23,239 nt of DNA from an uncultured bacterium (GCA_964534375.1 CAZHPN010000086.1:1-23239); one strand, 5' to 3'. Shown: positions 136 through 19,236, counted from the stretch's first letter. Program-made: numbers and translations. Notes: a model not told the origin generated them from the letters alone.

Positions 136-190
136 GATCCCGTTGATCCCCCGCCTCCGCGGGGCAGGCTCGGTTGATCCTGTCAAAAAA
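136..190 (+). repeat. 9-nt-period repeat (GATCCCGTT/GATCCTGTC type) interrupted by a small GC palindrome; holds an unoccupied copy of the IS110-like target
   Basis: GTTGATCC occurs at 142-149 and 173-180. GTTGATCCTGTCAAAA (173-188) equals the reconstructed empty site of the element at 17299-17956. Confidence 0.65.
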
Positions 191-15400: not shown

Positions 15401-17095
15401 CTACGAAAGCCGCACCAGCGTCTCCTGGCGGAAGCGATGCTCCGGGTCGTTGCGCACCAACTCGGCGGCCAGCGCCCGTCCGTAGCGTTCGAGAATCGCC
15501 AGCACCGGCGGCGCGTCCGTCTTGCCCAGCGCCGAACGCAGCCAGCGGGCGAGGTCGCGCCGCTTCGCCGCCGGCAGGTCGGCCCGGCCGCGGGCGACGG
15601 TCATGAGCGGCGCGAGCGTCGTCAGGTCGGCCCCGGCCAGCGGTTCGGGCGACGGTTCCCGGCCCAGCAGATCGCGGCCGAGAAACGTATTGAACAGCAC
15701 GCGGTAGCTGAGCTCGACGGGGTCCGCGATGTTGCAGCCGGCCAGATCCAGGCCGCGGATTTTTTCCGGCGTAAAGCCGAAGCGGCCGCCCATCAAGTCG
15801 ACGAACCGCTCGGCGATCTCGACTACCCGGCGCGTCTCGAGCACCTGCGCCATTTCGGTCCAGAGTTGGTCGACGCCGTCCGCCCGGCGCGTCGGTTCCG
15901 CCGCGAGCAGGCCGGCAAGTGCGTCGCCCTCGGGGCCGTCGAGCAGCAGCTTGTTCGGGCTCCGTCCGTCGACGGCCAATCGGGGCAGCAGCTTGTGCAC
16001 GCGCCGCGCTTCGTTCATCACCAGCGTGCGTCCGATCTTATGGATGTCGATGACGCGGCTCTCGACCAACTGCGCCGCGGCCTTGACCGGATCATCGCCG
16101 ACCAGGTGCTCCAGCCCGATGCTGATGTAACCGTCGGTGCGCGCGACCAGGCGGCTGACGCGGTCGAGTTCCAGGAACGGTGTCTTTTCGGCAACGGTGG
16201 CCATGTTGGCCAGACCCATGATTTCGACGGCGACGTCGTCGCGGCCGTCGAACGGCAGGGCGAGCGCCCGCCGCAGCAGCGAATCGCGATGCTCGTACTT
16301 GACCAGGTACCGCGAGCCGCTGATCCGCGCCCCCGGTTCCTTGGATTTCTGCAACGGCGCGGTCTTGCGGCCGGGCTGAAACCGTTCGAGATCCACCGTC
16401 ACGAGGATTTCCAGCGATTGGTAATAATCCGGGAAGCCGCGGCTTTCCAGGCGCTTGACGCGGTCCTCGTACGCGGCCTCCTCGGTTTCCGTGCCGGTTT
16501 CCCAATGGATCGCTTCCAGCAGGTTGAGAAAGAAATCCACGTCCAGTTGCGCGATACGGGCGAACAGGCCGTTGATCAGCTTGCTGATTTCCACGCTGCA
16601 GGTGTACTCGATCAAGTGGCGGTTGTCGGGCGTGACGAACGTGACGCCGTCGATGTCGAATTCGTCGTTGCGGTCGTCGAGGATGTGGATGGTCAGGTGC
16701 GCGCCGAAAAACGCGACCAGCAGCGCCAGGTCCATCTCCTGGACGTCGCGAATAAACGCGTCGTCGTCGAGTTCGTTGAGCAGCAGGAACCAGGTCCGCG
16801 CCTTGGCCAGGTCAAGGCGGTCGCGGTCCCAACAATCGATGTCGATGAACCCCTGCACCTGCTCGGTGGAGGCCATTTCCAGCAGTTCGAGCGCGTCCTG
16901 CGTGCCGATTTCCTGCAACATCAAGTACAGGCTCTCGGTCGGAATCAGCGCGACAATCTCCGCCGGTTGCGGATGCTCGAGCAGCAGCTTGTACGCGTCG
17001 GGCGCGCTCAGACCGGCCAAGAGCCCCACGCCGTCCTCCGGCGCCGCCGCCGCCATCGCCCCGGCCAACTCGTTCGTTTGCACTTTGTCGGTCAT
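15401..17095 (-). CDS. Conserved hypothetical protein, DUF6178-like
   Basis: Long ORF with GC-rich third positions. Motifs QVQGFIDIDCWDRD and EEAAYEDRVKRLESRGFPDYY resemble DUF6178 as recalled (not searched). AAAGGGG RBS supports ATG 17095. Confidence 0.7.
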   Translation of the reverse strand: MTDKVQTNELAGAMAAAAPEDGVGLLAGLSAPDAYKLLLEHPQPAEIVALIPTESLYLMLQEIGTQDALELLEMASTEQVQGFIDIDCWDRDRLDLAKARTWFLLLNELDDDAFIRDVQEMDLALLVAFFGAHLTIHILDDRNDEFDIDGVTFVTPDNRHLIEYTCSVEISKLINGLFARIAQLDVDFFLNLLEAIHWETGTETEEAAYEDRVKRLESRGFPDYYQSLEILVTVDLERFQPGRKTAPLQKSKEPGARISGSRYLVKYEHRDSLLRRALALPFDGRDDVAVEIMGLANMATVAEKTPFLELDRVSRLVARTDGYISIGLEHLVGDDPVKAAAQLVESRVIDIHKIGRTLVMNEARRVHKLLPRLAVDGRSPNKLLLDGPEGDALAGLLAAEPTRRADGVDQLWTEMAQVLETRRVVEIAERFVDLMGGRFGFTPEKIRGLDLAGCNIADPVELSYRVLFNTFLGRDLLGREPSPEPLAGADLTTLAPLMTVARGRADLPAAKRRDLARWLRSALGKTDAPPVLAILERYGRALAAELVRNDPEHRFRQETLVRLS

Positions 17096-17119
17096 CGTCG
17101 CCCTTTCGTTCGCTCGTTG

Positions 17120-17148
17120 ATTGTAGTGCCGCACCGGCAGGCGGGCAA
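17120..17148 (-). promoter_or_regulatory. Putative sigma70 promoter for the DUF6178-like gene
   Basis: TTGCCC-17 nt-TACAAT, 24 nt upstream of the ATG. Confidence 0.55.
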
Positions 17149-17187
17149 TGAAGAAAGAGGCTGGGAGGCCGAGAGGCTGGGCGGCCG

Positions 17188-17236
17188 GCAGTCGGCTTCG
17201 TGGGGGCGAACCTCGTGTTCGCCCGGCCGACTCTGC
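17188..17236 (+). repeat. REP-like palindrome
   Basis: GTGG + GGGCGAAC-CTCGT-GTTCGCCC (17200-17224), enclosed by AGTCGGC/GCCGACT. GTRG followed by a hairpin is the layout of RAYT-type REPs. Confidence 0.6.
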
Positions 17237-17329
17237 GTGACCCCTGGCGGGGAAAAAACACCCCTCGGGAAAATGATTTCGTCGATCGCGTTGATCCTCC
17301 TCCGAAAGGACCCCCGGTTGTCAAGATAT

Positions 17330-17495
17330 ATTTTCGCCCTGCCCTCAAGAAAGGACCCACGCTTACCCTCCGGACGACTCACTCGCGAATAGTACAGTCG
17401 GCGCCCGATCCCGGATCTCTGTCAGGGAACTCGTTGCCGGGCGACGGCTCAAGGATCAACGGCGCCCCGCCACGGGCGTCGTTCTCCGGGCGCCG
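17330..17495 (-). ncRNA. Candidate bridge/seek RNA in the downstream non-coding end of the IS110-like element
   Basis: Enclosing stem CGGCGCCC/GGGCGCCG (17495-17488 with 17406-17399), internal hairpins, and loop segments CGTTGATCCT and TGACAG matching the two strands of the insertion site. Boundaries approximate; no expression evidence. Confidence 0.5.
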
Positions 17496-17847
17496 TCACG
17501 CCGCTGCGGCGGCGCGCCGGACCAATCGATTCACCACAAAATCCTCCCGGCGGACGGCCATCGCCCGGACCGCCGCGGCCAGTTTGCGTCCCAACATCAT
17601 CTTCGCCTCGTTAGCGAGTGCACCGGCGGCCTGCGGTTGTCCGGCTTGAGCAAGCCGCAGACCAGCCACGGCCAGTTGCACCCGGCCTCCACCGCCGCCA
17701 CGATCCGACCGGGGCAACGTTGCCGCGCCACGTCCAGCGCCTCCCAGGCGTTCGGCGCGTTCGCGCTGCGCCCGACTTCCCCGGACGAGGCGACGCCGTA
17801 CAACCACGAGGACGCCGCGTGCAAATCAATCCGCCGATACGTTGCAA
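17496..17847 (-). pseudogene. IS110-family DEDD transposase remnant (N-terminal ~70 and C-terminal ~40 codons)
   Basis: (M)QRIGG/IDLHAASSWL..GEV..PN..AAVEAGCNWPWLVCGL matches the IS110 GIDLH..AVE..NW.WLV start; AKMMLGRKLAAAVRAM..REDF matches the C-terminal A..ALARKLA helix. The central region is absent. Confidence 0.75.
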
Positions 17848-17985
17848 TCTTCCTCGGACCGGCCTCCCTTTTGGTGCCACGGGGTTGTACCCCATTTATG
17901 CCGACCGTTTCGGCGGCCGAGCATCTACGACCGGGAGTCGGTTTTTTCCATGATCAGTCAAAAGAATCGAATCAAATAAATCAGC

Positions 17986-19236
17986 TCAATGCCGGCGGAC
18001 GAAATCGAGGCTGTCTTGCGGCTTGAGGAACGTGTCTTTGGTGGGTATCGGCTGCTGCGGGTCGACCTTCACCGGCTCGCCGAAACGGATCAGATCCAGC
18101 ACCCATAGCGCGTAGAGCGTCTGGTAGAAACGCAGCAACTCCATGCCGGCGCGGGTGCGCACCTGCGCCGCGGTCGTGTGGCCGTCGGCCGCATTCAGCA
18201 GGCGCCGGGCCGGCACGGTCAGTTCGCCCGTGTGCGGCGTCGTCGGAATCAGCGGCCGGCGCAGGCGTTCGCGTTTCGAGAAAATCATCTCCAGCCGTTC
18301 GCGATCGTAGTGCTGGCCGATGCCGGCGAAGATCACGTCGCGCAGCGGAATTGCGGTGTGCACCTGGATCTCGCCCGGCTCGGTCGCCGCCTCGTACTGC
18401 CAGCAGGCGTCGTACCAGCGCCACGAAAAAACGGCGGTCAGCTTCTGCATCGCCTGGTCGCGCAGTTGCTGCTCCAGTTCGGCCGGCGTCAGATACCCGT
18501 GTTCGCAAAGCCACTCGCCGAGCCGTTTGCCGGCGGCGATCTGCTGCTGCGCTTCGGCGATGATGTAGCGGCTGACGCGCCCTTGGACGATCAGCATCTG
18601 GCCCAGCGACATGTCGGAGATGAACGAACTGGAAAGGCCGTTCACCGTCTCGCCGCTCACCCAGACGCGCAACCACTGGCTGCGCCGCTCGACGCACACG
18701 CGGCCGGCGCCCCGCCGGCCCGCCAGCACGAGCACGCGCGCAAACGGCAGGGCGCTGATCGCGCCGCTGTCCGCCAGCGCCGGGGCCGGGTCGATTTCGA
18801 TTTCGTCTTTCGGCGCGGCGTCGCTGATCTCGACGCCCACCCACTGCGTGACCGCGCCCGCGAGCCGGTCCTCATCGAGCGGCTTATGCAGCCAATCCTG
18901 CGGGCCGGCGCTCGCCAGATGGGCGCGATAGTGCTCGGCCTGCAAGGTCGTGGCAAGCATCAACACGGGAATTTTCGCCGTGCGGCGGGCGCCGCGCAGT
19001 TGGTGGACCAGTTCCAGCCCGGAGCCGTCGTTGAGATAAAAGTCGACGAGCAGCAGCGCCGGCGGCCGGCGATTGATGATGCTCAGCGCCTGCGCCATGC
19101 TGCCCGCGGGCTCGGCCCGAAAGCGCAGTTTGCGCAGCATGCGGCACAGTTCCTGCGCGGTTTGGCCGTCGCCGGAGACGCACAGCACCCCCTCGGGCGC
19201 CGGGAAGTTATGCCGATATGAGCGTTGCGCCGTCAT
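17986..19236 (-). CDS. Response regulator: receiver domain plus DUF4388-like domain
   Basis: LLLVDFYL..SGLELV..TAKIPVLML..WLHKP receiver; then SGAISALPFARVL, SLGQML..GRVS, KRLGEWL..GYLT..L..QLRDQ and VFSW. Confidence 0.8.
   Translation of the reverse strand: MTAQRSYRHNFPAPEGVLCVSGDGQTAQELCRMLRKLRFRAEPAGSMAQALSIINRRPPALLLVDFYLNDGSGLELVHQLRGARRTAKIPVLMLATTLQAEHYRAHLASAGPQDWLHKPLDEDRLAGAVTQWVGVEISDAAPKDEIEIDPAPALADSGAISALPFARVLVLAGRRGAGRVCVERRSQWLRVWVSGETVNGLSSSFISDMSLGQMLIVQGRVSRYIIAEAQQQIAAGKRLGEWLCEHGYLTPAELEQQLRDQAMQKLTAVFSWRWYDACWQYEAATEPGEIQVHTAIPLRDVIFAGIGQHYDRERLEMIFSKRERLRRPLIPTTPHTGELTVPARRLLNAADGHTTAAQVRTRAGMELLRFYQTLYALWVLDLIRFGEPVKVDPQQPIPTKDTFLKPQDSLDFVRRH

Follow-up and report, generated by a model that had tools for sequence, protein, structure and literature searches.

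A degenerate IS1111-type element of the IS110 family with guide-like segments that match its own target in a dispersed bacterial repeat

The closest described counterparts of the element reported here are the IS1111 seekRNA elements ISEc11, ISPa11 and ISKpn4 (PMC11187229). Hallmarks of the IS1111 group given in that account include the protein motif GL-P-4 residues-S/T-G and a long non-coding region downstream of the transposase gene, and the IS1111-type seekRNA is described as lying downstream, with a match to the top strand of the target placed 5' of a match to the bottom strand, the two overlapping in the target. Sub-terminal repeats of IS1111 elements are put at 7-17 bp, and their bridge RNAs are predicted in the right end (RE; PMC11208160). 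For ISEc11, the same seekRNA account describes an 82-nt RNA with only the target matches that moved a mini-IS with ends of 50 bp and 46 bp when transposase was supplied elsewhere (PMC11187229). The clade described below is like these elements in its transposase of ~345 aa, its long downstream non-coding region, its sub-terminal inverted repeats without a long target duplication, and a predicted RNA whose top-strand match is 5' of its bottom-strand match, with overlap in the target. It is unlike them in being remote (≤34% identity to any plasmid-borne IS110-family gene), in its serine motif, which is GL-P-4 residues-SAG and not GL-P-4 residues-S/T-G, and, for the copy studied here, in having no working transposase and a truncated RNA region.

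The bridge RNAs of IS621 and IS110 (PMC11208160, PMC11208158) offer a second point of comparison, since there too each target strand has a separate guide, an internal loop is present, and the core is 2 nt long; IS621 has CT as its core, and the core here also reads CT on the plus strand, or AG on the strand of the element. The catalytic residues of IS621 are D11, E60, D102, D105 and S241, and the concept of handshake guides comes from the same work (PMC11208158). In our locus the sequence just past the 3' guide resembles the recombined junction, as handshake guides do, and its relatives carry a second loop-like block whose 3' side repeats the RE end and the core. In contrast to IS621, the RNA is in the right end and not the left, the guide order is reversed, and the inverted repeats are long; further, a donor loop can be proposed only for the relatives and is absent from the copy studied here.

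Multi-copy repeats are usual targets in the IS110 family, as described for ISPpu9 of Pseudomonas putida, which inserts in REP sequences (PMC12288879), and for IS1111, which targets QMITE2, a repeat in Coxiella burnetii (PMC5896051). The ISPpu9 account also describes circles, closed at AG dinucleotides, of tnp alone, tnp with ssr9, and ssr9 alone (PMC12288879). Features shared with ISPpu9/ssr9 are the AG crossover dinucleotide, insertion into a dispersed extragenic repeat, the occurrence of copies with and without a downstream segment and of the segment alone, and a non-coding part that needs transposase in trans. However, ISPpu9 belongs to the IS110 group, without sub-terminal repeats, and its ssr9 is an sRNA gene in its own right, with boxes of its own on either side, whereas the terminal segment here is the element's ordinary right end and its several forms are better explained by deletions. 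The Coxiella burnetii system as described (PMC5896051) is similar in being IS1111-type with a short target motif inside a multi-copy intergenic repeat, and different in repeat, in host, and in that the IS1111 copies there are intact.

Anatomy, boundaries and relatives of the element

The stretch of DNA analysed, hereafter the window, is the 23,239-nt contig C86 of an uncultured bacterium (GCA_964534375.1 CAZHPN010000086.1:1-23239). The host assembly comprises 6.3 Mb in 381 contigs with 64% G+C and is 94.4% complete, and DNA runs that contain the locus are labelled wetland or peat metagenomes; no RNA run was found among those listed for it. Positions 17299-17956 on the minus strand are a 658-bp IS1111-type copy of the IS110 family with internal deletions, situated between two minus-strand genes, for a response regulator with a DUF4388 domain (17989-19236) and a DUF6178 protein (15404-17095). 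Both of its ends are still there, together with 80 transposase codons from the N-terminus, 38 from the C-terminus and 199 nt of downstream non-coding region. Read on the element strand, the junctions are TTCTTTTGAC-TG-[LE ... RE]-AG-GATCAACG, and the features in that direction are as follows.

17957..17966, minus strand: left target half, TTCTTTTGAC on the element strand, part of a dispersed repeat (from the repeat consensus)
17955..17956, minus strand: 5' copy of the core dinucleotide, TG (AG in C128 and C111, AA in C5; from the junctions of four copies)
17849..17954, minus strand: left end (LE), non-coding, with a degenerate sub-terminal inverted repeat at 17937-17950
17609..17848, minus strand: N-terminal transposase remnant, 80 codons, IDLH aspartate and VEAG glutamate motifs kept (from alignment)
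17496..17612, minus strand: C-terminal transposase remnant, 38 codons and stop codon, in a frame different from that of the N-terminal piece
17452..17461, minus strand: 5' guide, complementary to the top strand of core and right target half (10/10 to the flank at 17289-17298)
17427..17450, minus strand: conserved hairpin between the two guides (9 pairs across 8 sequences)
17419..17426, minus strand: 3' guide, in the sense of left target half and core, CCTGAC-AG (varies with the 5' flank in relatives)
17299..17418, minus strand: terminal part of the RE, with the sub-terminal inverted repeat at 17302-17315 and the conserved TCTTGACAAC at 17317-17326
17289..17298, minus strand: 3' copy of the core, AG (17297-17298), and right target half GATCAACG

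The LE is thus 106 nt long. The flank GTCAAAAGAA begins at 17957, and the same T-run and GAC stand 5' of three other copies in this genome, on contigs C128, C5 and C111.

Relatives were found by a protein search with a read-through of C128, the longest paralogue, which returned ten proteins. Seven of them are 329-352 aa long, carry PF01548 and PF02371, and are 40-67% identical. The three tested (P0004, P0005 and P0007) score 165.7-176.9 bits against NF033542, "IS110 family RNA-guided transposase" (cut-off 140), and match both Pfam domains; the paralogue C128 matches PF02371 only. DNA of relatives was taken from metagenome contigs, which gave 13 loci, five of them the genome's own loci again (L021-L023 are C128, L028 is the window, and L027 is a join of both). 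Two fragments (L032, L033) were set aside, and L031 has no right end.

A preliminary description of the window had placed a miniature element without its recombinase at 17299-17956 on the minus strand, and both the boundaries and the strand prove correct. In all five full-length relatives (L024, L025, L026, L029, L030) the downstream region ends in TCTTGACAAC, 5 nt, GTCCTTTC, ~7 nt and then the flank, and the last ~50 nt of the window RE align with these RE ends (5/5). Since the relatives share the end motif of 17299-17345, the boundaries are right, and C128 and the copy at C5:15135 are copies without the terminal 120 bp. An early reading had set the element end at 17419, where three paralogues diverge and where 17283-17422 matches an IS-free site on C5; it was rejected because every full-length relative carries the terminal motif. 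The sub-terminal inverted repeats, which had been said to persist, are present in the window in degenerate form, the LE (17937-17950) and RE (17302-17315) agreeing at 6/9 core positions by manual count. In the three relatives with both ends they are clean and 9-10 bp long, and LE and RE vary together: the sequence (LE; RE reverse complement) is GGAAAGGAC in L029 and L030 and GGAAAGGGC in L026, and the relatives' LE carries TGGAAAGGAC, the reverse complement match of their own RE.

Only the transposase termini are left, as first described. In alignment with the full-length relatives, codons 17848-17609 correspond to residues 3-67 and 148-161 (57% identity) and codons 17612-17499 to the final 38 residues (66%). 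Pfam recognised no family in either of the two protein fragments from the window. The similarity to IS110 transposases on which the preliminary description had staked its reading is found by way of the relatives, which pass NF033542, PF01548 and PF02371 and to which the remnant aligns. An 80-codon gap (alignment columns 68-147), present also in C128 and C5, removes the AKNDRxDA motif, a stretch that aligns with the position of D102 and D105 of IS621. The window copy has also lost everything from residue ~161 to the last 38, the SAGK serine region included. The catalytic set is thus incomplete: of the four DEDD residues two are gone, as is the serine domain, and the IDLH and VEAG motifs remain.

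The architecture of the group, with a protein of 329-352 aa, a long downstream non-coding region, a short LE and sub-terminal repeats of 9-10 bp, points to IS1111 as its probable affiliation. From stop codon to 3' end, three relatives measured have 270-340 nt and the window has 199 nt. The relatives' serine motif, CGL(A/T)P + 4 residues + SAGK, is one residue off the published IS1111 motif. The clade is remote: the best plasmid-borne IS110-family gene is 33.6% identical, and the ISCro4 transposase was the only match in a search of PDB sequences (E = 0.0035). Among GTDB representative contigs, a protein pattern gave 54 stretches with no relatives, and a DNA pattern of the second hairpin described below gave three matches, none with other features of the family; 35 stretches from viral contigs likewise contained no relatives.

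Guide segments, target repeat and predicted RNA structure

The plus strand at 17289-17298 reads CGTTGATCCT and has its exact reverse complement at 17452-17461 (10 nt, 100%), so that the identity between the minus-strand segment 17461-17452 and the left flank, noted in the preliminary description, was recovered in full (10/10). As RNA, this 5' guide (17461-17452) would read CGUUGAUCCU, the exact complement of AG-GATCAACG. The second segment of that description, TGACAG at 17424-17419, is equally found, as CTGTCA on the plus strand at 17419-17424; the 3' guide of which it is part (17426-17419, CCUGAC-AG as RNA) repeats the left flank and the core. The two segments do overlap on CT, which is the AG core on the element strand. 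Guide order and downstream location agree with those of described IS1111-type seekRNAs.

Guides and flanks change together among the relatives. GTCATCC-type 5' guides accompany GATGAC or AATGAC flanks (L024, L029, L030) and a GCGACCC 5' guide accompanies a GATCGC flank (L026); 3' guides ending in GAC-AG accompany GAC-AG flanks, and those ending in CTC-AG accompany CTC-AG flanks. In a sample of five relatives with about three target types, for which the permutation floor is 1 in 120, cognate identity of the 5' guide in the five elements with a known 3' junction is 42/50 against a permutation mean of 35.8, a value reached by 4/120 permutations, and cognate identity of the 3' guide in five independent elements is 20/30 against a mean of 12.6, again reached by 4/120. 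The 5' guide matches its own flank at 7-10 of 10 positions in all five elements with a known junction, and L026, L029 and L030 match at only 7-8 of 10. For L029 and L030, the 5' guide has 8 and 7 of 10 matches, respectively, to the element's own 3' flank but 9 and 10 of 10 to the 3' flank of the other; this could reflect chance among similar targets, tolerated mismatches, or guidance by the RNA of a sibling element. The right flank of C5:15135 matches the guide at only 4/10.

On the element strand, the target is the 16-nt TTTTGAC-AG-GATCAAC. Related copies occupy the same target, a point on which the preliminary description had made its interpretation depend: the C128 flanks join to the same 16-mer as those of the window, and the joined flanks of both share TTTTGACAGGATCAAC. 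The 6.3-Mb genome contains 37 exact copies of the 16-mer, 91 with ≤2 mismatches and 148 with ≤3. They belong to a dispersed, intergenic repeat with the consensus T7-GAC-AGGATCAAC-AGGATCAAC, followed by variable short tandem units; it can also be described as a T-run, GAC, and then GGATCAAC units. Examples are window 173-188 (minus strand) and the empty-site sequence around 17289-17298 and 17957-17966. Among neighbouring repeats within 600 bp of each other, 13 of 19 pairs face each other with T-runs outward and lie 84-167 bp apart, and the repeat may form the ends of a small palindromic or MITE-like unit. Candidate natures for it are MITE ends, a REP-like unit, and a promoter with a TTGACA box.

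In the five relatives, an outer stem of 11 pairs and an inner hairpin of 9 pairs enclose an internal loop, with the guides unpaired on its opposite sides. Guide segments buried in stems and constant across targets would have spoken against the preliminary description; they are instead in the loop and co-change with the flanks. Across 28 pairs in the five relatives, a second hairpin included, 95% of cells are paired and 10 pairs have changed on both sides, a structure whose observed value is reached by none of 500 shuffles and for which slid controls are 26-46% paired. The inner hairpin, in eight sequences that include the genome's own copies, has 93.1% of cells paired and three pairs changed on both sides, against 31-41% paired in slid controls; none of 500 shuffles reaches its paired fraction or its covariation score, and two of five measures are no better than shuffles (both-side changes 265/500, further pair types 266/500).

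The window itself keeps part of this structure. The claim that a structured downstream region of ~200 nt persists holds for its presence, at 199 nt, but the region is shorter than in the relatives and folds no better than shuffled sequence: the 197-nt stretch is not unusually stable (-76.1 kcal/mol, z = +1.08; 172/200 shuffles fold at least as well). An Rfam scan of 16500-18800 at E ≤ 1 gave no match. The 3' arm of the outer stem is displaced or lost, and a block 3' of the 3' guide in all five relatives is absent from the window, where 122 nt separate the 3' guide from the 3' end, against 191-272 nt in the relatives. The hairpin of this second block (helix 3) has 8 pairs in the relatives, 97.5% paired and two of them compensatory. 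The 3' side of the block contains a segment that repeats the RE end, the core and the first bases of the flank (11 nt identical in L029). Its 5' side contains CATGATCT, which is complementary to AG-ATCATG, the start of the LE in this genome; the match of this side to the LE of the relatives is imperfect by eye. For the outer closure of this second loop, inspection by eye shows several competing pairings. From these resemblances, the second block is probably a donor-binding loop with handshake-like extensions. An RNA from the window would probably be incomplete, because the non-coding region is truncated and has no second hairpin block. Loss of that block need not be fatal in itself, because a target-only seekRNA of 82 nt sufficed for ISEc11.

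It could be objected that G+C-rich DNA yields inverted repeats by chance, that the 10-nt match is one of them, and that RNA guidance never played a part at a locus that is only an inactivated transposase pseudogene. The 751-nt region does contain 14 inverted-repeat pairs, four others of which are perfect at 9 nt, and the ordinary fold and the empty Rfam scan would suit this explanation. Yet one arm of the repeat stands exactly at the element boundary, and an origin by chance is unlikely: when the 197 nt of 17299-17495 were shuffled by mononucleotide 200,000 times, the exact 10-mer turned up in only 17 of the shuffled sequences. The equivalent position matches the flank in all five elements with a known junction, and the loop is bounded by covarying stems. 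We consider this explanation very improbable. The proposal of an RNA-guided element whose target can be read from its own sequence is instead supported by homology, by copies in the same target, and by covariation of guides with flanks.

Paralogues, shared deletions and probable past movement

A blastn search of the genome found three further degenerate copies and one solo segment.

C128:12594-13587: longest paralogue, with 444 bp more at breakpoint 17612/17613 and a TAG stop
C5:15135-15805: paralogue with 122 bp more at breakpoint 17612/17613
C111:10249-10647: paralogue cut at both ends
C5:57472-57612: solo terminal RE segment, 84% identical to window 17283-17422

The extra sequence in the first two defines the breakpoint in the window copy, which is the only one of the five related loci in the genome to have both ends. 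Identity among the copies is 92-96%. The identical 80-codon deletion occurs at three different repeat sites, in the window, C128 and C5:15135, and C5:15135 and C111 share a further deletion junction. Because paralogues at different copies of the repeat have the 80-codon deletion in common, we conclude that defective copies moved in the past, probably with transposase supplied in trans, which is the simplest reading of the shared deletions; gene conversion between copies could be an alternative route for their spread.

Several observations concern the ends of individual copies and their representation in assemblies. For C128 and C5:15135, either the same terminal deletion arose twice or a copy without a normal right end moved. 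In C111, the 5' deletion lies between two AGAT repeats and the 3' break lies inside the 5' guide, leading into an inverted, left-target-like GTCAAAATAATTC; these ends suggest recombination with an oppositely oriented copy of the repeat. The solo segment C5:57472-57612 has ~20 nt more of RE-like sequence than the corresponding part of the window, and GATGGAC, a variant of the right target half, comes after it. The 27.9-kb metagenome contig L027 joins the 5' flank and left end of C128 to the rest of the window locus across a shared 354 bp, which is either a chimeric artefact of assembly through the repeat or the product of true recombination between two copies. Summed contig depth at 17464-17510 and 17887-17933, a measure of contig depth and not of copy number, is ~3-10x that of the flanks in three runs, and the community may contain copies beyond the four that were assembled.

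The preliminary description had allowed for either a cassette mobilised in trans or a relic that points to an intact parent. Past movement in trans is what the shared deletions favour, but neither present movement nor an intact parent was found. In the genome itself, PF01548 had no matches (15 candidates scored) and PF02371 matched only the broken C128; 60 related genomes gave three distant matches only, of 27-31% identity; and the nearest full-length protein in a search of 5.8 billion proteins is 67% identical. Contigs of four DNA runs showed no joint across the element and no empty site, and the loose ends listed match known paralogues. The marks of a MITE, several two-ended copies and insertion polymorphism, are likewise wanting, with one two-ended locus in five and no empty-site joint in the four runs.

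These results bear on whether the window copy might be a currently active, MITE-like cassette that carries its own guide and is excised and re-inserted today by an intact transposase elsewhere in the cell. In favour of this, several repeat sites did receive deleted copies, the window copy is alone in this genome in having both ends, the mini-IS of ISEc11 is described as moving with transposase and an 82-nt seekRNA from elsewhere (PMC11187229), and an intact IS could be unassembled, since the assembly is 94.4% complete and in 381 contigs. Against this stand the searches for a transposase just described, the 5' core of TG and not AG, the degenerate LE repeat, the missing second hairpin block, the modest identity among copies, and the lack of a joining contig in four runs. 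Present activity therefore seems improbable to us, and the window copy looks immobile today because of its DEDD and serine deletions, the missing second block, the 5' core of TG, and the lack of an assembled intact transposase.

A different challenge comes from the positions at which copies break. Alignment of C128 and C5:15135 with the window breaks off right behind ...CCCTGA(C/T)AG (17419), at the AG of the 3' guide, and both lack the terminal 120 bp; in C128 this AG abuts the proper right target half GATCAACC. C111 breaks inside the 5' guide and is joined to an inverted left half. One might then regard the locus as a composite of two mobile modules in the manner of ISPpu9, a core from LE to 3' guide and a 120-bp terminal module (17299-17418), with AG crossover points for each and the 3' guide doubling as an alternative right end. 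The forms that such a composite would produce are all seen, namely core alone (C128 and C5:15135, ending ...GA(C/T)-AG), core with terminal part (window), and terminal part alone (C5:57472-57612). The direct joining of the 3' guide to the correct right target half in C128 would also fit, as would the resemblance of the bases after the 3' guide to the LE start (an identity of 11 nt in L030, covering the guide and the 6 bases after it) and the set of circles described for ISPpu9 at AG (PMC12288879). However, in all five full-length relatives the terminal part is continuous with the RE and holds its only inverted repeat, which makes it an ordinary element end and not a passenger. Moreover, the solo segment, ~20 nt longer and without a proper left target half, fits a deletion remnant better, and ordinary deletions at short repeats (ACAG, AG) account for all forms. 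We therefore hold a two-module composite, including the doubling of the 3' guide as an end, to be unlikely.

A related and similarly doubtful idea is that the guide-encoding DNA is itself a substrate of the element's recombinase and provides built-in alternative ends. Were the breaks the work of the recombinase, the element would shed sub-modules, some of them guide-only cassettes that spread in trans, and RNA-guided IS elements could decay or diversify in this way. A loop-only RNA of the kind that the window copy would encode could, besides, occupy target repeats or transposase without delivering a donor. Ordinary deletion at short repeats would explain the same forms, and we keep to decay by deletion in preference to breaks made by the recombinase.

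Proposed history and significance

Taken as a whole, the locus is very likely a non-autonomous fossil of an IS1111-type element whose parent was RNA-guided into TTTTGAC-AG-GATCAAC. By analogy with the relatives and the literature, the parent would have worked through a DEDD/serine recombinase of ~345 aa acting with an RNA transcribed from the long right end. The 5' segment of its internal loop would pair with the top strand of the core and right target half and the 3' segment with the bottom strand of the left target half and core, both overlapping on the AG core (CT on the plus strand), and the guides would thereby direct insertion into the 16-nt site at the edge of the dispersed repeat. The window copy has kept both ends and the target-binding loop and has lost 80 codons of the RuvC-like domain, nearly all of the C-terminal domain, the second-hairpin block, and the original AG of the 5' core. 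Transcription of the guide RNA is presumed.

The finding does not overturn current understanding: the mechanism was described recently, and the locus illustrates it cleanly but without surprise. A decayed copy proves sufficient for reading the target of an IS1111-type element, and the reading could be checked in the genome, which contains the predicted 16-mer 37 times in exact form. The clade added here is remote and, in the searches made, was met only in metagenome contigs and in this genome; its predicted right-end RNA has two hairpins, which widens the pool of natural bridge/seek RNA designs. The nested and shared deletions are a natural record that copies without an enzyme were moved, and the breakpoints at guide segments hint at how such elements fall apart.
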